Below, piece by piece: positions 12,590-60,300 of a stretch of 64,000 nt of DNA. Each line of letters begins with the position of its first letter. Positions within the stretch are counted from its first letter, which is position 1. This DNA comes from Perna viridis. Its lineage: Eukaryota. The DNA lies in the NCBI GenBank assembly GCA_037379345.1, contig CM074512.1:22816001-22880000 (forward strand). Reading direction: 5' to 3'. The position numbers and the translations under genes are program-made. Below the pieces are notes generated by a model. It worked only from the letters and a program-made list of their open reading frames with translations. It did not search any database and was not told the origin of the DNA.

Positions 12590-13462
12590 AATACCTTCCG
12601 CAGTTTTCACGTTTCCTTTGGGTTACCTTTTCATCATACCATCAGCAGTTCTTCACTTCCTTTGTGTCACCTTTTCATCATACCTTTGGCAGTTCTTCAA
12701 TTCCTTTGTGTCACCCATTCATCATACCTTTGGCAGTTCTTCACATTTACTTTGGGTCACCCTTTCATCATACCTTCAGCAGTTCTTCACCTTCTTAAGT
12801 TACCCTTTCATCATACCTTCAGCAGTTCTTCACGTTTCCCTTGGGTCGCCATTTCATCAAACCTTCAGCAGTTCTTCACGTTTCTCTTGGGTCGCCATTT
12901 CATCATACCTTCAGTGGTTCTTCACGTTTCCCTTGGGTTGCCATTTCATCATACCTTCAGCAGTTCTTCACCTTCTTTGGGTCACCCTTTCATCATACCT
13001 TCAGCAGTTCTCATTTTTCTTGGGTCGCCATTTCATCATACCTTCAGCAGTTCTTCACGTTTCCCTTGGGTCACCACTTCATCATACCTTCAGCAGTTCT
13101 TCACGTTTCCCTTGGATCACCACTTCATCATACCTTCAGCAGTTCTTCACGTTACCCTACCGGTGCACCTGGTCGATGCTCCCAGTTTTTGGTGGAGTCC
13201 GAGTAGCTCATTTGCTTTTGTTGCTTTGTGTGTGTGGTTTTGGTTGCTTTATGTTCTTTGTTGTATGTGTCTTTTTTCCATGTCTGGTCTTTGTCCCTGG
13301 AATACATTCTTTTGATTACCGCTATAACCTTGGTTCCCTTGATTACTCTTTCTCTTGGGTCGTCATTTCATCATACCTTCAGCAGTTCATGTTTCCCTTG
13401 GTTCGCCATTTCATCATACCTTCATAAGTTATTTGCCTTTTGTTTGGATTACCTTTCATCAT
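12590..13462. repeat. 43-46 bp tandem repeat array (about 15 units) interrupted by an interspersed repeat
   Basis: Unit TTTCATCATACCTTCAGCAGTTCTTCACGTTTCCCTTGGGTCGCCA. Confidence 0.95.
13152..13352. mobile_element. About 200-bp unclassified interspersed repeat, copy 1
   Basis: TTACCCTACCGGTGCACCTGG...CCCTTGATTACTCTTTC; second copy at 17283-17469 with the same boundaries. Confidence 0.8.
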
Positions 13463-27300: not shown

Positions 27301-30300
27301 AGTATAATTGTATAAAACAGAGAAAAAAATTGTAAAATTTGTGAAAATAAAATATGTATAAAGCAAACATTGTGTATCACATTCATATATTTTTTTAGAT
27401 ATACTGATTTTACAATGAATACAGATGACGTCACATTGTCTGAACCTTATCTAATAATTTGATGGACATAACCTCTAACAAGAACTGTATAGGTGCCTGG
27501 CATGTTAGTTCAGAAAAGTCAACTAAAGCTGTGGCCATAGTCTTGAAGAAATTAGGATCTGTAAAACAAAATATGTTTATCATTAAAGCTCATGGAACCT
27601 GTATTGTAATTCAGGTTGCATTTAAAAAGAAAACCTTGACTACACGATAAGCTACTTTTAAGATTTTGAAATATTTGTTTGCCAAATAAAAAAATTATTC
27701 AGATCAAGTCTTAAGACTTAGCACTGTTGTGTTGGAACATAATAAATCTCATCAATTAACTTAAGAATATTTTTTTTTGGATAAGTAATCAATCACAAGC
27801 CTTTTGTGTCTCTTTTTCCAACAAAAGAAAGCATGCCTATCAAATCTTGTGGAATTTAAAACTGAATTACAAATATGTGTCTAACACTGAAATATTCTTT
27901 GTCCTTTTGATTTTATTTCTTTATCTTATTTCAAACCAAAACAGAACCCAGGAATTTAAAGTACTTAGGGTTAACAGCTCTGTAAGGAAGAATAATGTAT
28001 CATTTAACACTTTTAAATTTTTTTCTAAAATAAAATTTATACAGACCCTCAAAGTTGCTCTGGAACAACATTGGGAAGATGCCATTAGGGGCAAGCTGAT
28101 GTAGGACACATCTTAGGAACTGTCTGGCTATGCTTACACTGTTACCTGGTACCATCAGATTACTGGAGCATATAATAAGAGAAATCAAAATTAGATGAAG
28201 TACTTACACAGTGGCACCATAGAGTCTAGATAAAGTCAGTAGCTTGCCAAGAGAGTCAAACACGTTTGAAAAAGGTGCAATGCCAAAAAATGAGGCTACA
28301 AATAGTTTTAGGTTATATCAAACACCTTAGTCTAACATGATTCAAATGAAGTTCTTAATTAGTAACGGTGCAGTTTTGTTGTATTGAAATAGATGTATGC
28401 CTCTATTATGCAAATTGAACAAGACTTCTGTTCATAGTTTGTGTTCTAGAAAGAAGTGCTTAAGTTTTAAGGCAATATAGAGGGATCAGACAGTAATGAA
28501 TGCAAAGTGCATACCCACAATCTGGGTACGCTAATGATATACTATACTTAGAACTCAATAGCAAACTTCTCTACAGTGAATTCAGACACAGCTGTAAGGA
28601 TTTTCATAGTTATCATAAGAAAAGTTCCTACCTCTCTGCTTGCCAGGCATATGGGCTACTTGAAGCTATTCTGTAATGAAAATGCAAGTGATATAATGTA
28701 GTATACAGTAATTAATCAAAAAGTTTTGATAACAAAATTATTATCAAGAGCATCAATATGCACATATAAACAAAGAGGAGAATTTGTCCACATGACTGAT
28801 CATATATTGGATCAGAACTATCAGTAGATTTTCACTATAGAAAACATGTCTAAACTGAATCCTAAATAAAACATAAGCCTGTCTCAACCAGACACTTTTA
28901 AAGGTCCCTTCATATCAGTTTAAATGTACTGAACCTGGATAAACAAGGTACCCAACAAACTCTACAATCCAAAGGGGGCTCAGTTTGGACAGGTTTCACT
29001 GTAATGTGAACAAAAACCATAAAAAACTTTCATTTTTACCTCGACACACACTGCAGCATTTCAAGAAGGAGCGGTGTAGCTAGAGATGGTTCTCTGTGTA
29101 TGAAGGTTGCCAAGACAACAATACAATAACCAATTACATCATCATCATACTGTTCCAAAATGGCATTACATTCAGCACACCGATCCATCATCAAATTGTC
29201 ACCATATCGTGAAGGAGTTGTTTTCTTGGCAGCTTTCTTTGCCAGTAGTTCACTCTTCCTACTTTTACGACTGTTAAAGATAATTATTGACTTCAATATC
29301 ATTTCTAAACTTCTTATAAAAACTACTTAACCTTATTGACAAAATTTGGAGACGTATTTAGCATAATACCAAACCTATTACAAAAATTTGTGGATCTTAA
29401 ACATGAAACAAATATTTTTGCTTGAATAGAATACTTTTTGTAAAGCTTTATATTCAAATTATAAGCCCTGTAAGGCTCTTTGAAGTTAATTTCTTGGTTC
29501 TCAACCCATTTTTTATGAAAACTATTGAGGACGAGTGGCATTCCTTTTTACCATTTCATTGCACCAAAAATGACAAGGAAGCTTTTTACATTTCATAGAC
29601 GGAAACAAATGACAATTAGGAGTTTTTGTTTATCTTTTATTGATATGGCAATAAAAAAGGGTAATGAAGCAGCCTCAGAAGGGAGGGTCTGAGAACCAAA
29701 CTAATAATGTTGTGAGGCCTATATATGGCAATTATACCTCTTTGTAAAAGTACCCTCATCAGGAACAGGTTCATTTAGTTCTGGGAAAATATTCTGTAAT
29801 TCCACAGTTGTCAGTCCAGTCTTCCTTGGCTTTTTGTCCCTAAAGTTTGGTTTTGGTCCTACGCTTTTAACAGATTTCTTCTCAGATTTATCAGCTAAGT
29901 TTAAAAAAATACCACAACAATGTGAACAAAATACTAAAAATAGATGCAAAAACATTGAAACAAAATTGCCAAATTGTGAATTAAATAATCTTTATAATTG
30001 GAATTATCAATGGGAACCATATATGACTTCAGTATATTGACAAACAAAAATGTCTATCAATTAGTATCACCCTATACACTATGTATTTCTTTTCACACAA
30101 AAATGAAGAAAGACATGTATTCCTAGTGTTGCATTGACTGGATGAATTCTTAGATAATAGTACATGTGTATACTGTGAAAGTACTTTAATTCATGGACAC
30201 CAATTTTCGTTGATTAGGGATGAAACACAAGTTCGTGGATTTTTGATTTTGTGGTTTTGAGGTTTTCAGTATACATATCAATAGTATTCTCCTTTTTGTT

Positions 30301-33300
30301 GAAAACCCAATTTCCTAGTTTGGCCTACGCATGAAAACCACAAAAATCGGTATCCCATGAACAATAGTACTTTCACAGTAGATTTGAAACAAATAACCCA
30401 CAAAATTAAGTGGACCATTAAAATGCACAACTACATATCATACCTTTATTACTTACAAAGTTTCATTAAATTTGGTGCAGTAGTTTCCAAGGAGATACAC
30501 TTTTGGGGGAAGATATAACTAACCTAGTAACCTAGAATATGGCAAAATATATACCCAATACTTACCTCTACCATCAGCTCTGGCAGGAGACCTAATTCTT
30601 CCTCCTGTTAGTTTATCAGAATCTGTATCTGATGTAGTCAGATTCTTATCACTATCATCTGCACTCTCAAGTTCAGAGGTCATATCATGGCTCATATCAG
30701 TAGTAGATGTTACACCTGTCCAGGAACTCTCTGTTGCACTGCTAGAAACACCAGCAGACATCAAAGGAGGACTTGTCACTCTGCCTGCCTCTGTTGGGGC
30801 TAGAGGCTTGGTTTTAGATGGAGGACTTGTCACTCTACCTCCCTCTGTTGGGGCTAGGGGCTTGGTTTTGGATTTTTCACTTTGTTTAGAGAATTCCATC
30901 AGCTGTTTAGCCATGACTTTCTCCACAGATGTAGTATCATTAACAGGACTAGTATCAATCTTTGCTGGAGATGTGGAAGCTGTTTCTTCATCATTTACAG
31001 TATTTTTTGGTATATCTACAGGAATGCTCTTATCTTTTGGTTGTACCTGCAGTGAAAAATTTTAAAACTTGTATAACTGACCACACTGCTACATTACTTC
31101 AGGATGTTAGGATTTATTTTTCCAATTAACACCTTCCAATTTTTATTACCCAGGAAAAATAAAAGAAATACTGAAAACTCAGACATTATGCTGTGCTGTT
31201 ATTATTGCTAGAAAAAAAACTAAATCAGAATCTCAGTCATTAAAACTTCCATTATAAAGTTTTAACATAACTGGTGGAACATTCTTCTAAATAACACAAG
31301 AACTTAAATCATATTCTCATCTAAAATGACAAAATCACAATATTTAATGCACACAATTATTTTTGAATTTACAGTATGTGAGACAGTAATTATTCCCTGT
31401 TGAGAAACTCATTTCCAGTACTATGAGTCAATGTGAAAACCATGCAGAAATACAAATATATAATCCTTTTACACAAAAGGGCAGTTAAATACATATCCAT
31501 AGTATCCTTTAGTTATCATTGTAAATTCAAACCACTTAAAACAAAATTATAACAAATATGTTTACATTATTTTTTAGTTCCATATTAGGTTCATTGTATT
31601 CTACCAATCTTCTAGGTTTTCTGGTCCTGGCGACAGGTCGCTTTGGTGTCTGTTCTAAAGCCTCCTCTATAACCTGCTCTCTGATTGGTGAGACTTGATC
31701 AGCTTTCTTGAAGTGAACAGTACTGCCACTTGATCCAATACTGACTTTAATGGTATCATTATGATTTTTAGGGCTCTGTGGTGGTGTGTCTGTCTCCTGA
31801 ATGTTTTCTAGGTCATTCAGTTTACTTGGTTCTGAAAACATTAACATGAATAATTATGAATTATATTCATATCAGTTATAAGATATCAAACTAAATAAAA
31901 ATACAGCGGAAAGTATCTAATCCAAAACATGAGTATTCAAGAATACATTTAAATCTAGCCTGTGATTCATAAAACATCTCAAATTGAGAATTTCCTCAAA
32001 ACTTTGAGTTTTTGAGTTTTCCTCCGATCTTCAATTAGATTAGATTAGTAGAAAATTTGAAAGAAGGATAAAGATATAGTGAATAAGACATTTTCCACTG
32101 AACTCATTAAATGCAATACAACAGGTTTTGTGCTGTCTTCATATCTAGTGATATTGATAAGCTCAGATAAAGATATCTGTATGAATGTAACAAAAATCAT
32201 TACTTGACAGCATTTCAAGAAAAACTTTGTGAGAAAAAATTTAAAACTATAACAATACTTTTCACCATTAGTAAATATATGATTATGCAAAATTGTTATT
32301 TACAAATAAAGTATTGCAACTAGTAAACATGTATGTGTATACTTTGGAACCTCTATTTCTCAACAGTAAGACTAGGTGGTATAAATCCTACCTCACAGGA
32401 CTTCTTACACCTACCTCTATTTCTCAGTATAGTTGGACTAGATAGTATAAATCCTTCCTCATGAGACTTATTACACCTACCTCTATTTCACAGTATAGTA
32501 GGACTAGGTGGTATAAATCCTTCCTCATGAAACTTCTTACACCTACCTCTACTTCTCAGTATAGTAGGACTAGGTGGTATAAAACCTTCCTCATGGGACT
32601 TCTTATACCAACCTTTATTTCTCAGTATAGTAGGACTAGGTGGTATAAATCCTTCCTAAGGGACTTCTTACACCTACCTATATTTCTCGGTATAGTTGGA
32701 CTAGGTGGTATAAATCCTTCCTCATAAGACCTCTTACACCTATCTCTATTTCTCGATATAGTTGGACTAGGTGGTATAAAACCTTCCTCATGGGACTTCT
32801 TATACCAACCTTTATTTCTCAGTATAGTAGGACTAGGTGGTATAAATCCTTCCTAAGGGACTTCTTACACCTACCTATATTTCTCGGTATAGTTGGACTA
32901 GGTGGTATAAATCCTTCCTCATAAGACCTCTTACACCTATCTCTATTTCTCAATATAGTTGGACTAGGTGGTATAAATCCTTTCTCATAAGACCTCTTAC
33001 CCCTACCTCTATTTCTCAGTATAGTACGACTAGGCGGTATAATTCCATCCTCACTGGACCTCTTACATCTACCTCTATTTCTCAGTATAGTAGGACTAGG
33101 TGGTGTAAATCCTTCCTCATGAAACTTATTACACCTACCTCTACTTCTCAGTATAGTAGGACTAGGTGGTATAAAACCTTCCTCATGAGACTTCTTACAC
33201 CTGTGGTGCTGAGCTTCCACTGTGTTGATTACAATTCTTATCAGCGTTTGGATAATAGCCGACACTGGTGAGGTATAAAACTGATACTGAAATACAGATG

Positions 33301-36300
33301 TAAAATCCAAATATGATATACCGTATTTTGGTGTGTATTGTGTGCACTTTTTTACCAGGAAACTAATTTCAGCACATGGGGTGCGTATAATACACCCATA
33401 CATTGTTTCAACACATTTTTACAGACCAGAGATCGGTCGAAAATTTACGACCTCGAGGGAGTCAACATCGAATCAGAGACCACTTATGAGGTGCCAAAGC
33501 ATATTTATTGATTTTTCATGAGTTTTTTGTTGACTTGTTACCTTTGTAAGCATAGATTGTCAATAAAATCTTCTTGAACAGAATCTGGTTTCAATCTATT
33601 TCCTCCAAAAAAAACATGGCAGACTATGTTTACAACCGCCATACTTTCGTTTTTGTGTATTGATTAACTAATGTTGTCATGTGGTTATTGGGGCATTGCA
33701 AAGGGTATTTAGATGTCACTGATAATAGTTTCACCTGTTAATTTTATATCTAACAAGCAACTGACATATTTATTGAGGGGATTAATTAATCATGACGAAG
33801 ACACAAGACACTTAGTTACCGGTATTATCGAAGGAGATTGTAAATTGTTTTGCGATGTGTATATAATTATGTCTTTATGATGTACACGACTTGTTAATGA
33901 TATGAAAGAAGTAATTAAAATACACACAAGTTTAAACAATTTAATTACTGAATAACAAAATCTTGGGCACATTGCTCATAGAGCCCTAAAATATTTCCAT
34001 TGGACAGAGTAGTCGGTTTAAAAAAAAATATTGTTATTTATGCATCGTATTGAACTCTACTTCATAGTTATTGGATATTCTACTTTTTGAAAATATTGGC
34101 TTCTTTTTTTTATTGAACTAATATCAAAATCCTTATCCAATGTAAAAACAATAATTTTTAAACATAAACCCTTTATGTATCCCCTACATAACACACATGC
34201 CCTATTTGATGACCGTCTGCATTGTTCGCTCAGACCCCTTAATTGATTGTAGTAAAAACAGTCCTTCTTCTAGAATTAGCAATCTTCAGAAATTTATTAC
34301 TCTCAATAGAAACCTTTCAAAGGTAATCAAAACATATGCCCAAGCTGACAATTTCAGCTATTGTCTACGTTATACATTTCTTACCCGAAAAGTAAATGAA
34401 TACACATAAACACTGACAAAACAGACAAATACAAAAAGTAACAAAACAATATTCTTTATAGGAATAAATACACAAAACAGAGAAATGGTCCATTCTATTC
34501 AAAAATAAATTAAAGCCAGTAATGTTCGTGGTCCAAACAAGTTATGCTATTTTCACCACGTAAAATACATACATACATCGGTAAAAAAGTTTTTTACATC
34601 AACTTTTAAAGGGAAAACCACCCTGCACAATAAACACAAATGTGCATTATACACACCAAAATATTCCATTCAAGCCAATTCTTTTTTTATTTTTTTTTTT
34701 AAATATATAGAAGTTGTTAGGACTGAATTTAAAATATGTGCTGATACAACAAATCTGATAAGTATTGTCAATCCAGTCACTAGACTCTATGAATACTGAA
34801 TATTCATTACAAGATTTAGTTTGTAAGACTTTGAAGATGGACAGATAAAACTCATGATACAATGGTACTCAAAACCAGATATCTGAGATCAAATCTCAAG
34901 TTTTTCTTTTTCAAAACTTGACCAAGCAAAATAAAATGGCTTTCTCATAAGTTCATATCTTGCACAGTTCAACCAGAGGCTAATGCCTTTTTCATATTTA
35001 AATATCAGAATCATTTGTGATTGTTTGCTGGTAATTCATTAAATTGTCTATGAAATGACCAATGACATCATAAGGATATAATTAGAGAATGTATCTAAAG
35101 TTCTGACAGCATAATCAAGAACAAATTACAACCAAAAAACATGGAATAAGACATTTATCTGACAAAATATTTGACATTGTAATATATACTAACATTATCA
35201 TTCCACTAATCATATTTCCAAACAAATATTTTTACAGCATTGAATATGAAAGTTCTTCTGGGTTCACAAAATGACACCTATTCTGCAGATAATTGTATTT
35301 TACTTTAAGATCTTGAGCTGTTAACATCAGGGTTGATGCCTGTAAATTGATTTTACTGGCAGCATATCAGCAAACTTGTAAATTAAATGGTTGTTTGTGA
35401 CCATCAAATCATGATTAGTGAAAACAAATTTCAAATAAAATACAGTTATCTCTATTCTTAGCAACAGCTGCATAAATGTTGATATTCCAATTAAAAGTCT
35501 TTAAAAAAAACCTCAATTTAACCAAAGTATTGCACCGTTCTCACTAAGCCATTATAGCACTGTACTTTGCAGCACTATAATTTCTTAGCATTGTGCTATC
35601 AGTAATTAATTTTAATTAGAATGCACTATGGGCACTGTGTTGTAATTTGGAGGAAGGCCAAAAGAGCTGTGCTATGCCAGTAAGCACTGAGCTATTAAAA
35701 AATTATGGGGAGAACACTGTATTGATACCCTGTAATTTACAACATAGTCCAATGCAAACAAAGTCACAATTATTGTTGCATTAGAATGTAACTTGTAACC
35801 AGTAGTATAGAAGTGGATATCAGGAAACACATAAAATGTATCCGAGTGTTTAGTATTCAAAGAAAAGATTGCATTGTATATACTGTAAATGTATCCGAGT
35901 GTTTAGTATTCAAAGAAAAGATCACATTGTATATACTGTAAATGCATTGTATAGACTGTTAATGCATTGTATAGACTGTTAATGCATTGTATATACTGTT
36001 AATGTATTACTTTTTGCAGTTGCTAATTTTCACAGAATCTGTCAAGTGAACATATTGACAGCTATCAATTTTTCACGAAATCTGTCAAGTGAACATATTA
36101 ACAAGTATCAATTTTTCACTGAATCTGTCAAGTGAACATAATGACAGGTATCAATTTTTCGCAGTTTGAAAAAAATAATTAGGGTTTTATAGAGTTAAAA
36201 ATCAATTTAGCGTGTACTTTTTTTGCAATTTTCTGTCCACCACGAAAATTAGTATGTTTCCAGTAGTATAATCTACTACAAATAAGCCTCTTGTGTATTG

Positions 36301-39300
36301 ATGTCTACAAAATAAAGATGTCTAGATTCTAGTGTACCTTATACAATATAGTCAGCAAAGTCGTGAGCCAGGACACCTGTGTATGAGGCTCTAAGTACCA
36401 TAGAGTATAGTTTGGTGGCTGGTAGTCACTGGCATATCTCTGTGGTGAGGGCCCATACTGTAGTAGTAACAAAGTGATTGGTAATATCTGGTTACCTAGT
36501 TTAAAGTTTCTGTCAAGTACCTGCAAAATGTTAGGTTTCATTTCACTAGTGTATTTTGATCTCAATAAAATAAATTTCTATGATTCATTAACCGAACAGA
36601 GTTTTAATTATTTGTGGTATAAAACATTTGTGTCTAGCATAGAAGAAGTTACATTATTATAGTTCAGTATTTGATTTCTATAGTAAATCTAGGTAACATT
36701 ATAACTAGTTACTACAAGAGGCCTTGATAGTTCTGTTTCCCCAGTCAGAAGTTTTTACTATTGATCAGGGTAATAGTAACATAATCCTACTTCCCAGATT
36801 TTTCCCCCTCCAATTTTAATTGGTTAATCAAAGTTCAGATGTTATCAAGCTTTTTCCTTGAACAACATTAAAATCTGATACGGTGTGATCAGACAGCAAT
36901 AAGCAATCATAGTCATGTAATATATCTACTCACTTATTATGAAGAAATTTTTATGGTTCAGCATAATAAAACATTTGGTGACTGTTCATTCAGAAAACAG
37001 TAAATTGATTTGTCTCAGAAACCATTCAACAAATGTATACTGTTGAATACAATGAAACAATAAGAAACTTACAAATGGAACACCACTCAAAAATGCATTG
37101 AATACAGCTGACGTTCTGAAAAAGAAATGATCGGATGAAGCTGACATTCTGAAAAAGAAATGATCGGATGAAGCTGACATTCTGAAAAAGAAATGGATCT
37201 GATAAAGCTGACATTCTGAAAAACAAATGGATCGGATAAAGCTGACATTCTAAAAAAAGAAATGATCGGATGAAGCTGATGTTCTGAAAAGAAATTAATT
37301 GAACACAGCTGATGTTCTGAAAAAGAAAGGCATTGAATACCATTGAGGTCCTTAAAAAGAGAAACATTCTGACTTTTTTAAAATGTAACAGTATTTATTT
37401 ATTTTCATGACAATTTTTTAAAAAAGACTGATGGATTGATATCTGACCCATTACCAATAAGATATTAGGTATAAAAATTGACTTGATATATTTTTAATAA
37501 ATTTTTATTTGTTAAACTAAGAATATGTTAACAAAATTAATAACACAAGGAGAACACAATATATACCATATACCTCTTACAAACTTCCCATTTTTTACCA
37601 TCATTTTATATATTGAAGAAATAAATAATGGAAACTTCGTTTTATCAATGTTTTACCACGTGCTGACTATTTATGTTGCATTGTTTTGAATAATGACATA
37701 AATAACCAACCCATAGTAAAACAATGATAAAATGGAGTTATAAATGGCCAGCCTGTAGTAAAACAATGATAAAATGGAGTTTCCATGATTTATTTCAACT
37801 CTAGTAGGACTAGTGTCTTCATACTTTTTAATACATGCAGCTTATGTGTTGCACGAAATGTTGGTCATATGTTTATCACTTTTTGACCATGACTATGGTC
37901 TAAAGAGCTTTGAAGCATGTCATATTAGAATGGTTATTTTGGTTAGTGTTAAGTCACCATAGCACAGGGGCTTACTCCCACTATCAGCCCCAACAGTATA
38001 TGACTTATACAAGGGTGATCCCACATTTGGAAGTGCCTTGCTTCAACTCCATTTTTTTCAAATAAAATCAAATATATCACTATTTACTACTCAGCAATCA
38101 GTTGACAAATGATGAATTTCATCAATAAACACATGTTACTTGACAGTGGGAACAAGCCCCCGTGGCATATGCTTGCTATTTGTCCTCTTTCAAAAGGTCA
38201 CTTTTCAGATAGTATGAGCACTATTTGAATTACAGCCTCACCTTAATTTGTGTGGTGGTACTGTAAATGATTTCTCTGTCTGGTTGTATCCTAACAAAAT
38301 GTTCAAATGTCTCAACACAACATTCTGAAAAAAAGGCCAAATTTTCTTAACTATACAGAAAGCAAACTTAACTGGAAAAATATGGCATTTTGACTTTCAA
38401 TTGATTAATGTGTCATAAAACAACCAAGTTTGTACTTCAAATATAAACGTTTTTTTTGGTGAAAACAATTGTAAGCACTCAGTAACACTGCTACTAAAAT
38501 ACAAAAATAATTGTGAGGAAAAGTTTACTAACAAATACCTCCTGCTCCATACAGCAGAAACCATACAGACAGTACAGGTGTACAATGTAAATATGTAATA
38601 AAGGTTCTGTGAAAGTAACATTAAATTCCATTCAGAAGTTGTGGATAGGAGATAGGTACATGATATTCATATTGCAAGTCTAAGTTTTGCTATGGAACCC
38701 ACCATCCCCCCACACCCCCCCCCCCAAAAAAAAAAATTAATATTTCAGGAAAGTTTCATTCAATTCATTCTAATAGTAGTGTAGAAGGGTTAATGGACGA
38801 GGGAAGGGTACCCTTGTGTGTACAGAAGTTTCAACAGAATAACAGACATCCCTATCATTGTATACCCCTCACTTTCCACGTAGGGGTACGATAAATGTAT
38901 GATAAATAACACTTACCTGTGTTTTTGTGTTGACTTTGTCATCATCATTCATGTCACAGTTAACCATAAACTGGAAGAGAATATTTATCAAATTATTTTG
39001 TGTGCTATTAAGGTGAATCATATCTAATATTTCTAGTAGATAGATTTTTCTAGTTGTTCTTAAAGATGATCTTAATTGAACTTACTTTAGAATTTTAATG
39101 TAAAAAAATGTGTCACAGGACTTGATTTTGAAATGATTGTGCCATAAAAAAGCCATTATTTTACTAGCTTTTATATGGATTATGTAGGGAATTTTCAATA
39201 TTTTGCAAACTACTTAAATACTAGCAGATAGAATTTCATATAAATTTATAAAAAAGAATGCTATACTGACATTCTTTTACATTTCAAATAGAAAAGTGGG

Positions 39301-54300: not shown

Positions 54301-57300
54301 TTGAACAAGATTATTTGAAAAGAGTATTTAGATTTACAAGCCAATAAAGTTTAGACAATTATATCATAATATTAGAGGAGATGGACCAATGAGTCAGTCA
54401 AATACCCTCTTGCAGTAATCTTGTTCATTCAAGCAGAACCAAGAGTGGACTGTAAGTAGAAGACCATTCAATTATCATTCCAACCAAGAGAGATTAAAAT
54501 CTATCAAATAATGTCTGTAGAGTCGATCTTCATAGAAATTGTCAACAACATACTCAAGATGTGAAAAATCTTCAAAATTTGTAAATTCTTCTAATTAAAG
54601 CTGGAGGGAAATACTGTTAAGTGTTTTTTTTTTCTCGTGTGTGGAAAAGTTTTTCTTAAAAAAAAACTGGGCGATTGATTCTTTGTGTATTGTAATTTTC
54701 ATGGCAGATAAAACTGCTCATGAATAAAATGAAGATTAATCACTTTATTTCATCTACATAAATATTTTGTGTGATTGAATTTTCATGTTCCAACTTTGAC
54801 TGCAAATACAATGTATAGCGAAAATTAAATCACTTAATGGTAGAACAATTCAATGAAGTAAAAGATTGTATTACTTAAATAAATAATAATACATAAAACA
54901 ATATTTAGTTGTTATCGTAAGTCTGTACATGCTCATTTGACTATTTGTCATTGACCATCTACAATGGAAATGTTTAATATGGAAAGATCCCAGCTTGCTT
55001 AAATAAAATGCCTCACAAAGACTAGCTTGATACGACCACAGAGGCCGAACTATGAACAGTTGGGGCAAGTATGGACACATTATTTAAGCTTGATACAGAT
55101 CTGAATTGGGTTCTGGTTGGGATTATTTGACTCAGGAAAAGAATTTGAACAAAATCACAGCGGCCTCTTTCTGGTCCCTTAGTTCAAGTTGCACCCTCCC
55201 AAAATCAATCCAAAGCTTTGCTTTGTGATATGGCACCCTATGGTATAATTTCATAACGATCTATACACTTAAACTCAAGTAAATGTCCAGAAAGTAAGTA
55301 TCTACAGACAACAAGGAACGATGACGACAGCACGATTCAATTATACGACTGTAAATTTGTAGAGGTCGTATAAAATATTCTTTGGTAATGATTGTTACAA
55401 AACATGAAAATAATAGATAGAATAATAGAAAAACTGTATCTTACTATATACTAACCATCTGGGAGGTAAGCTGTAGCATCAAACCATTGAAACAACATAC
55501 CAAGTAAACGTCCTAAAACTTCCTTTAAAACAAAAAAATTAAAACGTAAATTTATGCATTTCGTCAGACAAATAAATATTTATTTATTGTTCTACTACAA
55601 GTTCTAGACTACTGTTAGGATTCTACCAACACCATCAACAGCAATAATGACATCAAACTGAGTGAAAATCTGGGGAAAACAAGACTACGAGATTCTACCA
55701 ACAGCAATAATGACATCAAACTGAGTGAAAATCTGGGGAAAACAAGACTAGGAGATTCTACCAACAGCAATAATGACATCAAACTGAGTGAAAATCTGGG
55801 GAAAACAAGACTAGGAGATTCTACCAACAGCAATAATGACATCAAACTGAGTGGAAATCTGGGGAAAACAAGACTACGAGATTCTACCAACAGCAATAAT
55901 GACATCAAACTGAGTGGAAATCTGGGGAAAACAAGACTACGAGATTCTACCAACAGCAATAATGACATCAAACTGAGTGGAAATCTGGGGAAAACAAGAC
56001 TACGAGATTCTACCAACAGCATCAACAGCAATAATGACATCAAACTGAGTGAAAATCTGAGGAAAACAAGACTACGAGATTCTACCAACAGCAATAATGA
56101 CATCAAACTGAGTGGAAATCTGGGGAAAACAAGACTACGAGATTCTACCAACAGCAATAATGACATCAAACTGAGTGAAAATCTGGGGAAAACAAGACTA
56201 CGAGATTCTACCAACAGCAATAATGACATCAAACTGTGTGAAAATCTGGGGAAAACAAGACTACGAGATTCTACCAACAGCAATAATGACATCAAACTGA
56301 GTGAAAATCTGGGGAAAACAAGACTACGAGATTCTACCAACAGCAATAATGACATCAAACTGAGTGAAAATCTGGGGAAAACAAGACTACGAGATTCTAC
56401 CAACAGCATCAACAGCAATAATGACATCAAACTGAGTGAAAATCTGAGGAAAACAAGACTACGAGATTCTACCAACAGCAATAATGACATCAAACTGAGT
56501 GGAAATCTGGGGAAAACAAGACTACGAGATTCTACCAACAGCAATAATGACATCAAACTGAGTGAAAATCTGGGGAAAACAAGACTACGAGATTCTACCA
56601 ACAGCAATAATGACATCAAACTGTGTGAAAATCTGGGGAAAACAAGACTATGAGATTCTACCAACAGCATCAACACCAATAATGACATCAAACTGAGTGA
56701 AAATCTGGGGAAAACAAGACTACGAGATTCTACCAACAGCAATAATGACATCAAACTGAGTGAAAATCTGAGGAAAACAAGACTACGAGATTCTACCAAC
56801 AGCAATAATGACATCAAACTGAGTGAAAATCTGAGGAAAACAAGACTACGAGATTCTACCAACAGCAATAATGACATCAAACTGAGTGAAAATCTGAGGA
56901 AAACAAGACTACGAGATTCTACCAACAGCAATAATGACATCAAACTGTGTGAAAATCTGGGGAAAACAAGACTACGAGATTCTACCAACAGCAATAATGA
57001 CATCAAACTGAGTGGAAATCTGGGGAAAACAAGACTACGAGATTCTACCAACAGCAATAATGACATCAAACTGAGTGGAAATCTGGGGAAAACAAGACTA
57101 CGAGATTCTACCAACAGCATCAACAGCAATAATGACATCAAACTGAGTGGAAATCTGAGGAAAACAAGACTACGAGATTCTACCAACAGCAATAATGACA
57201 TCAAACTGAGTGAAAATCTGAGGAAAACAAGACTACGAGATTCTACCAACAGCAATAATGACATCAAACTGAGTGAAAATCTGGGGAAAACAAGACTACG

Positions 57301-60300
57301 AGATTCTACCAACAGCAATAATGACATCAAACTGAGTGAAAATCTGAGGAAAACAAGACTACGAGATTCTACCAACAGCAATAATGACATCAAACTGAGT
57401 GAAAATCTGAGGAAAACAAGACTACGAGATTCTACCAACAGCAATAATGACATCAAACTGAGTGAAAATCTGGGGAAAACAAGACTACGAGATTCTACCA
57501 ACAGCAATAATGACATCAAACTGAGTGAAAATCTGAGGAAAACAAGACTACGAGATTCTACCAACAGCAATAATGACATCAAACTGAGTGAAAATCTGGG
57601 GAAAACAAGACTAGGAGATTCTACCAACAGCAATAATGACATCAAACTGAGCGAAAATCTGGGGAAAACAAGACTACGAGATTCTACCAACAGCATCAAC
57701 AGCAATAATGACATCAAACTGAGTGAAAATCTGAGGAAAACAAGACTACGAGATTCTACCAACAGCAATAATGACATCAAACTGAGTGAAAATCTGGGGA
57801 AAACAAGACTAGGAGATTCTACCAACAGCATCAACAGCAATAATGACATCAAACTGAGTGAAAATCTGGGGAAAACAAGACTACGAGATTCTACCAACAG
57901 CAATAATGACATCAAACTGAGTGAAAATCTGAGGAAAACAAGACTACGAGATTCTACCAACAGCAATAATGACATCAAACTGAGTGGAAATCTGAGGAAA
58001 ACAAGACTACGAGATTCTACCAACAGCAATAATGACATCAAACTGAGTGAAAATCTGAGGAAAACAAGACTACGAGATTCTACCAACAGCAATAATGACA
58101 TCAAACTGAGTGAAAATCTGAGGAAAACAAGACTATGAGATTCTACCAACACCATCAACAGCAATAATGACATCAAACTGAGTGAAAATCTGGGGAAAAC
58201 AAGACTACGAGATTCTACCAACAGCAATAATGACATCAAACTGAGTGAAAATCTGAGGAAAACAAGACTACGAGATTCTACCAACAGCATCAACAGCAAT
58301 AATGACATCAAACTGAGTGAAAATCTGAGGAAAACAAGACTACGAGATTCTACCAACAGCAATAATGACATCAAACTGAGTGAAAATCTGGGGAAAACAA
58401 GACTACGAGATTCTACCAACAGCAATAATGACATCAAACTGAGTGGAAATCTGAGGAAAACAAGACTACGAGATTCTACCAACAGCAATAATGACATCAA
58501 ACTGAGTGGAAATCTGAGGAAAACAAGACTACGAGATTCTACCAACAGCAATAATGACATCAAACTGAGTGAAAATCTGAGGAAAACAAGACTACGAGAT
58601 TCTACCAACAGCATCAACAGCAATAATGACATCAAACTGAGTGAAAATCTGGGGAAAACAAGACTACGAGATTCTACCAACAGCAATAATGACATCAAAC
58701 TGAGTGAAAATCTGAGGAAAACAAGACTACGAGATTCTACCAACAGCAATAATGACATCAAACTGAGTGAAAATCTGGGGAAAACAAGACTATGAGATTC
58801 TACCAACAGCAATAATGACATCAAACTGAGTGAAAATCTGGGGAAAACAAGACTACGAGATTCTACCAACAGCAATAATGACATCAAACTGAGTGAAAAT
58901 CTGGGGAAAACAAGACTACGAGATTCTACCAACAGCAATAATGACATCAAACTGTGTGAAAATCTGGGGAAAACAAGACTATGAGATTCTACCAACAGCA
59001 TCAACACCAATAATGACATCAAACTGAGTGAAAATCTGGGGAAAACAAGACTACGAGATTCTACCAACAGCAATAATGACATCAAACTGAGTGAAAATCT
59101 GGGGAAAACAAGACTACGAGATTCTACCAACAGCAATAATGACATCAAACTGAGTGAAAATCTGGGGAAAACAAGACTACGAGATTCTACCAACAGCAAT
59201 AATGACATCAAACTGAGTGAAAATCTGGGGAAAACAAGACTATGAGATTCTACCAACAGCATCAACACCAATAATGACATCAAACTGAGTGAAAATCTGG
59301 GGAAAACAAGACTACGAGATTCTACCAACAGCAATAATGACATCAAACTGAGTGAAAATCTGAGGAAAACAAGACTATGAGATTCTACCAACAGCATCAA
59401 CACCAATAATGACATCAAACTGAGTGAAAATCTGGGGAAAACAAGACTACGAGATTCTACCAACAGCAATAATGACATCAAACTGAGTGAAAATCTGGGG
59501 AAAACAAGACTACGAGATTCTACCAACAGCAATAATGACATCAAACTGAGTGAAAATCTGGGGAAAACAAGACTACGAGATTCTACCAACAGCAATAATG
59601 ACATCAAACTGAGCGAAAATCTGAGGAAAACAAGACTACGAGAATATTACATGTAACAATACATAGTGCCCTTCAGGCTGGAACATGGAAATACTTGTAG
59701 GAGGCCTAAATTGTGTCAAAATTCAACCCATCAAAACAATAAATCAGGAAACACACTGACAAATCTAGAGTCTCCTTCAGTACGGGACTGAAATAAGGTC
59801 AAAACATGAACTTACATAGATTAACTGCCTTGCATGTTATATATACTAAGAGTTTCAAGATGACTAAGCATTATCATATAAGAATAAATGGCATTTTTTT
59901 TCTGATAATGACTTAATCACAGTTCATATCAGGTGAGCTTACTAGGGCCAGCCGATATAAACCACGATGAAGTCACTATCTAAAACAAAATGTCATTTAT
60001 TCCTTTCATTGGTAATTTGCTATTTAAAAAAGAAAATGATGCTCGTTATCTGAAATATGTTAAAGAAATCGACCAAAAGCATTCCTTAACTGGGAGCTTT
60101 TTTATCGAATGACCACCGATTGTCATGATTTGTGAAAAGGTCCAGTCAAAATTTAGCAAATGCGTCAGTTGATGAAGAGATGTAACACGTGAAGGTTGGC
60201 ATGTCACAAGATTAATGTGTTAAGATCTGTTGTGTAATATTATCAGAATTATTTTAAGGACTATATAAATTCTACAATGGTAAGTTACAATTTGCCAGTT

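Follow-up and report, generated by a model that had tools for sequence, protein, structure and literature searches.

A conserved exon of the mussel UNC79 gene runs at its 3' end into a 66-bp minisatellite, and the first of the repeated donor sites was the only one found joined to the next exon. We consider it probable that unit 1 of the array serves as the 3' end of this exon, that splicing takes place at the first donor, and that units 2 to 13 are silent spare copies, likely neutral. Each unit comprises 64 exon bases and 2 intron bases, and 66 is a multiple of three; the units that depart from this length are units 6 and 9 (65 nucleotides [nt]) and unit 13 (64 nt). The window, which is the whole stretch of 64,000 nt that was analyzed, is rich in repeats, and the array is 1 of 48 tandem-repeat rows obtained with Tandem Repeats Finder (period 66, 13.0 copies, 87% matches, score 1251, far above chance). 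This confirmed the initial annotation, which had described a 13-unit array repeating the exon end. The array and the exons around it are as follows (window coordinates).

32349-33202, minus strand: minisatellite, 13 units of 66 bp, crossing an exon-intron boundary (Tandem Repeats Finder; covered end to end by the DNA-like run X15)
36338-36520, minus strand: upstream coding exon of UNC79, 61 codons (PDB UNC79 match; RNA-like contigs in 4/4 runs)
33139-33286, minus strand: 148-nt coding exon, the last 64 nt of which are unit 1 of the array (RNA-like contig pieces and joint; frame matches Mytilus UNC79)
31832-33138, minus strand: 1307-nt GT-AG intron holding units 2-13 (RNA-like contig joint)
31566-31831, minus strand: downstream coding exon (RNA-like contigs and Mytilus alignment; the RNA pieces span 31563-31831, and 3 nt fit on either side)

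By homology, the host gene is identified as mytilid UNC79. The upstream exon (36520-36338) matches PDB UNC79 chains (7SX3, 7W7G, and 7WJI) with an E value of 9e-09, and the array-bearing exon aligns weakly with the part of those chains that follows (E 0.2-0.7). Residues 271-2343 of Mytilus edulis UNC79 align with one exon after another between 63507 and 15215, which makes the animal a likely mytilid mussel, and the Pfam domains PF14776 and PF26723 are present in mollusc UNC79 homologues. The array begins at the last conserved motif (chain 7wji_B, 1411-1441), at the start of a variable linker, and its unit 1 is coding. According to PMC9098444, UNC79 is a subunit of the NALCN-FAM155A-UNC79-UNC80 sodium-leak channel complex, and 1528 of its 2654 residues are modelled in the structure. 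The array lies in the mussel version of this gene and leaves the main protein unchanged.

The array is real sequence and not an assembly artefact, because the DNA-like run X15 covers 30/30 bins of 31640-33300, including the whole array; the evidence comes from contigs. A genome search found a single location for it in the mussel's own genome, although the method may skip common words. Divergence between the units, which reaches 15 of 66 places, also argues against an artefact. Within the array, a block of three units was recently duplicated:

32567-32951, minus strand: three-unit block duplication, 32764-32951 and 32567-32754, offset 197 (units 5 and 8 are identical, as are units 6 and 9)

Two pieces with double depth in X15 (32567-32648 and 32825-32917) fall in stretches that are present twice in the assembly. 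For a third such piece, 32691-32780, the assembly gives a partial explanation, with just 34/60 words in doubled stretches, and X15 has other letters at 32410 and 32426, inside units 12-13. These two observations are what speaks for an array that is much different in the animal or an artefact altogether, which we regard as very improbable. Allele length may differ, and the array alleles of the X15 sample, a single DNA-like run seen through contigs, may depart from the assembly.

The evidence on splicing comes from 5 of 17 RNA-like runs (X4, X5, X8, X19, and X20), which belong to four studies and have no recorded tissue of origin. The run type is a guess, none being recorded as RNA; the term RNA-like rests on spliced contigs with a joint that is missing from X15. 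All 17 runs contain 0.30-0.32 of the words of 30560-33300, where the exons alone predict 0.30. The junction from 33139 to 31831 was found in 5/5 of the runs examined. The joint itself (31831/33139, 1307 nt skipped, GT-AG, minus strand) is listed in X8, X19, and X20. In X4, the exon pieces are adjacent within one contig, and the record coordinates in X5 leave a gap of exactly 148. At 93% likeness, 3/3 RNA-like runs had no cover on units 2-13, and no second contig meeting the acceptor exon was found in these runs. On either side of the joint, the depth agrees to two decimals with that of a single contig. Thus, at the contig depth available, just one donor is joined to the acceptor at 31831. The initial annotation had proposed a working ladder of alternative donors, to be disproved by a single junction; the ladder was not seen, and a single junction is what all five runs gave, with the most upstream donor dominating in contigs where minor forms are invisible. 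Contigs of depth 6-13 drop rare forms, and minor isoforms below roughly a fifth (an estimate) would be missed.

At 90% likeness, X4 and X5 still fit the exon alone. In X8 and X19, the depth over 32976-33209 was 4.01 (2.01 expected) and 5.76 (3.08 expected), with trace depths of 0.25 and 0.33 over 32742-32975. This extra depth stems from one unlisted piece and is absent at 93%; it may reflect a short chance match or divergent units.

All 13 exon-end equivalents that had been described were found, at 33139, 33073, 33007, 32941, 32875, 32810, 32744, 32678, 32613, 32547, 32481, 32415, and 32351. GT is kept at 11 of the 13 (10 of the 12 later units); the ends at 32941 and 32744 read AT, the two places at which GT loss had been noted. 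The corresponding features are listed below (a slash marks the exon end).

33133-33141, minus strand: used donor GAG/GTAGGT, exon end 33139, phase 1 (joint 31831/33139 in X8, X19, and X20; adjacent pieces in X4)
32869-33075, minus strand: in-frame, stop-free spare donors 33073 (GTAGAT), 33007 (GTAGGG), and 32875 (GTAGGT); 32941 is without GT (sequence; no RNA-like cover at 93%)
32819-32858, minus strand: loss of 1 nt in unit 6 (about 32858-32854), leading on read-through to the stop TGA at 32821-32819 (sequence)
32409-32812, minus strand: spare donors behind the stop (those at 32547, 32481, and 32415 have the used donor's nine bases)
32345-32353, minus strand: last exon-end equivalent, GAG/GTTCCA, a poor donor (4/9 consensus matches; above 2/40 donors of the gene)

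Joining these ends in silico to the exon at 31831 reproduced the predicted reading frames. Ends 33139, 33073, 33007, and 32875 are in phase 1, in frame, and stop-free, and the latter three would add 22, 44, and 88 residues. The 65-nt sixth unit shifts the frame to the TGA at 32821-32819, and therefore all later ends lie behind a stop, as had been claimed. Donor strength was ranked against 40 donors of the UNC79 gene called by automatic alignment, a small and slightly noisy reference with at least one wrong end (30572 was called, whereas RNA shows 30566). The used donor scores above 33 of the 40, 33007 above 31, 33073 and 32875 each above 25, and the last donor above 2. This agrees with the earlier description of a strong first and a weak last donor. 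Judged by such scores, a number of the later donors appear to be on a par with the first, and two or three of these are in frame.

Since several later donors match the first in quality, position rather than strength likely decides. The first donor would win as the most upstream good site after the acceptor of the 148-nt exon, which we infer by likeness to the human F7 array, and units 2-13 would then be removed with the intron. A slip to the donors from 32810 onward would bring in a premature stop, and the transcript would likely be degraded. Decay of transcripts cannot hide the use of the in-frame spare donors, because their products are without an early stop.

Three further candidates found no support. 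A donor at the start of the array, which would make the whole array intronic, is not an RNA junction, and 33201 and 33199 lead to immediate stops when joined to 31831. Selection weakening the neighboring donors was not apparent, as 4 of the roughly 33 distinct substitutions fall within the six donor bases, where 3 would be expected by length. For units acting as cassette exons or recursive splice points, inspection of the sequence found no pyrimidine tract preceding the AG.

An alternative to exclusive use of the first donor is that this donor is dominant while 33073, 33007, and perhaps 32875 are used rarely or in a tissue-wise manner, adding 22, 44, or 88 residues to a poorly conserved linker. 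The rank of these three donors, their open frames, and the low-likeness depth on the proximal array in 2/4 runs at 90% are consistent with it, and the same gene tolerates an 18-residue duplication inside an exon nearby. The empty units 2-13 at 93% and the single contig at the acceptor exon in 3/3 runs argue against it, and so do the comparisons with relatives and the substitution pattern given below. Overall, we judge rare use of the spare donors improbable.

Homologues were represented by 37 of 57 proteins; short fragments, flatworms, and insects were left out. Anchoring succeeded for 31 of the 37, and no repeat was found in any of these 31. The spacer from a conserved Cys to the conserved motif of the next exon measures 26-29 residues in 27/27 measurable homologues. 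Over this stretch, the Mytilus protein equals the product of the first donor, with a match to unit 1, and one unit is present in 14/14 Mytilus proteins covering the site (among 15 of 22 cluster members listed). These alignments indicate that the ancestral state is one unit. The orthologous intron was also sought in metagenome host DNA, where the unit pattern gave 0 stretches and the exon peptide gave 0 confirmed of 594 candidates. In Tegillarca granosa, a predicted protein (P0008) stops ten residues past this exon end. Its last residues apparently come from translated intron, in agreement with a phase-1 intron conserved at this position.

Compared with unit 1, units 2-13 carry about 33 distinct substitutions, 6 of them synonymous; 22-27% are expected without constraint. 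Unit 11 contains a stop, and independent frameshifts are present in units 6/9 and in unit 13. One apparent stop in units 6 and 9 results from where the alignment gap was placed and was excluded from the stop count. Unit 10 has its 3' part in common with unit 1. In the open units 2-5, 6/22 substitutions are synonymous, and the chance of at least 6 without constraint is 0.36-0.57. Random placement of 22 changes leaves no stop in 45-68% of trials, and therefore the open frame of these units needs no explanation. From this pattern, units 2-13 appear to drift without protein constraint and are not protein-like.

The initial annotation had suggested that the first donor was created by the duplication junction itself through AGGT microhomology. 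This is doubtful. Copies of AGGT lie in the exon interior at 33202, at the exon end at 33140, and at intron positions +3 to +6 (33136). The first two lie 62 nt apart, not 66, and their pairing gives a different junction; creation by the junction and AGGT microhomology are therefore not both possible. A 66-nt unit calls either for a blunt join or for an AGGT already at intron +3 to +6, that is, a donor predating the duplication. In the latter case, slippage or unequal exchange between the AGGT at 33202 and the AGGT at +3 to +6 of a pre-existing AG/GTAGGT donor would give exactly 66 bp, and the last copy, no longer needed, would likely have decayed afterwards, for example, by a four-base loss from the doubled AGGT. 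Origin from a pre-existing GTAGGT donor, with the junction reproducing the old donor, is the course that we somewhat favor, since the last donor is unusually poor for the gene and a four-base loss explains it. Origin from another good donor, since eroded, is possible but less probable.

The remaining view of the origin is that the last donor (AG/GTTCCA) is the ancestral one and that the duplication junction made a stronger first donor that took over. It accounts for a last unit whose end coincides with the ancestral exon end and borders on unique intron DNA, and 1/40 gene donors called by alignment likewise lacks both the +3 purine and the +5 G. However, it requires a blunt join, and GTTCCA scores above only 2/40 gene donors. 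With 10 positions unlike unit 1, the last unit is also among the most changed, and it does not have to preserve the ancestral end. We regard this view as unlikely; it concerns the origin only and is compatible with splicing at the first donor alone.

A loose end at 32344 in 3/4 runs prompted the idea that a dispersed repeat had cut the array short after the last unit. This was unsupported, as own-genome searches for dispersed copies of the DNA past the last unit returned only the window's own place. Elsewhere in UNC79 introns, numerous unrelated contigs pile up to high depth on the stretches 30168-30401, 31966-32002, and 35550-36251, in RNA-like runs as well as in DNA-like ones; these stretches are likely fragments of dispersed repeats.

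The arrangement has counterparts in human genes described in PMC1557585. In F7, where the minisatellite lies in intron 7 and has a 37-bp unit, splicing uses the most upstream donor alone, and mutating it moves splicing to the next. The LMNB2 (100 bp) and PDGF intron 4 (81 bp) arrays, with 10-18 copies, likewise use only the authentic donor. In the CBS intron 13 VNTR and the intron 2 minisatellite of the interferon-inducible gene 6-16, splicing employs two spare donors in addition to the first, a precedent for occasional use of the UNC79 spare donors.

The UNC79 array resembles F7 in that unit 1 crosses the exon-intron boundary, later units repeat the donor, and only the most upstream donor was found used. 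It differs in its unit, which has 4 exon and 33 intron bases in F7 and 64 exon and 2 intron bases in UNC79. This multiple of three means that a later donor, if used, would bring further copies of coding sequence into the transcript. Mutation proved the spare sites of F7 functional, according to the same paper; those of UNC79 are putative sites read from the sequence. With LMNB2 and PDGF, as described there, it shares a long unit, a copy number like their 10-18, a reiterated exon-intron junction, and use of only the authentic donor, although those are mammalian genes. It shares with CBS and 6-16, so far as described there, a ladder of donor copies downstream of the authentic donor; two spare donors are used in those genes, and none was seen used in UNC79 contigs. 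The head-to-tail array, the authentic junction in unit 1, the repeated donors, and the dominance of the upstream donor are common to all. On these testable defining features, the UNC79 array belongs with the exon-intron-spanning minisatellites of F7, LMNB2, PDGF, CBS, and 6-16, an already known arrangement of which it is an ordinary but clean invertebrate example. The scanning rule ("most upstream donor wins") was tested in mammalian cells; by analogy, the unused spare donors, which are good, in frame, and stop-free, suggest that the F7 rule holds in a mollusc too. A search of the literature at the level of title listings found nothing on this locus or any mollusc case, no paper was found for a UPF3A example, and PMC10078293 contributed nothing further. 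A practical consequence is that gene predictors could wrongly extend the 148-nt exon through the array.

A mirror-image array is present in the same gene. It has 33/34-bp units at 37091-37339 (minus strand) and crosses the acceptor of a 43-nt exon (37115-37073), two exons upstream, with seven acceptor-like sites. The last site, 37115, fits the Mytilus protein. As read from the DNA, sites 37148 and 37181 keep an open frame (+11 and +22 residues), and 37283 and 37316 keep the frame but run into stops. This array offers natural material for the opposite test.

One may imagine that, by way of the in-frame spare donors of a lineage-specific, length-variable array, nerve tissue makes versions of UNC79 carrying one, two, or four additional Pro/Ser/Arg-rich repeats, with a second in-frame ladder at the acceptor array. 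We consider this quite improbable. Use of the spare donors in nerve tissue would allow a minisatellite to vary a NALCN channel subunit, and if both ladders were used, minisatellites would tune this subunit of the sodium-leak channel at donor and acceptor sites alike.

The in-exon duplication mentioned above is an in-frame repeat of 54 bp (18 residues) at 30766-30873 (minus strand), inside the exon 31046-30566. It is present in RNA-like contigs, and the exon appears as a whole piece in 3/4 RNA-like runs; Mytilus has a single related stretch at this place. The UNC79 intron 61578-55523 holds a 63-bp array of 62 copies (55636-59643), with 1336 open codons in one frame of the minus strand and only 6 stops in one frame of the plus strand. 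The scarcity of stops may be compositional, as T makes up 45% and A 17% of the minus strand. A further array, with about 12.5 copies of a 46-bp unit (12591-13158), lies past the final coding exon of UNC79 (15215); two of its plus-strand frames are stop-free, probably due to base composition.
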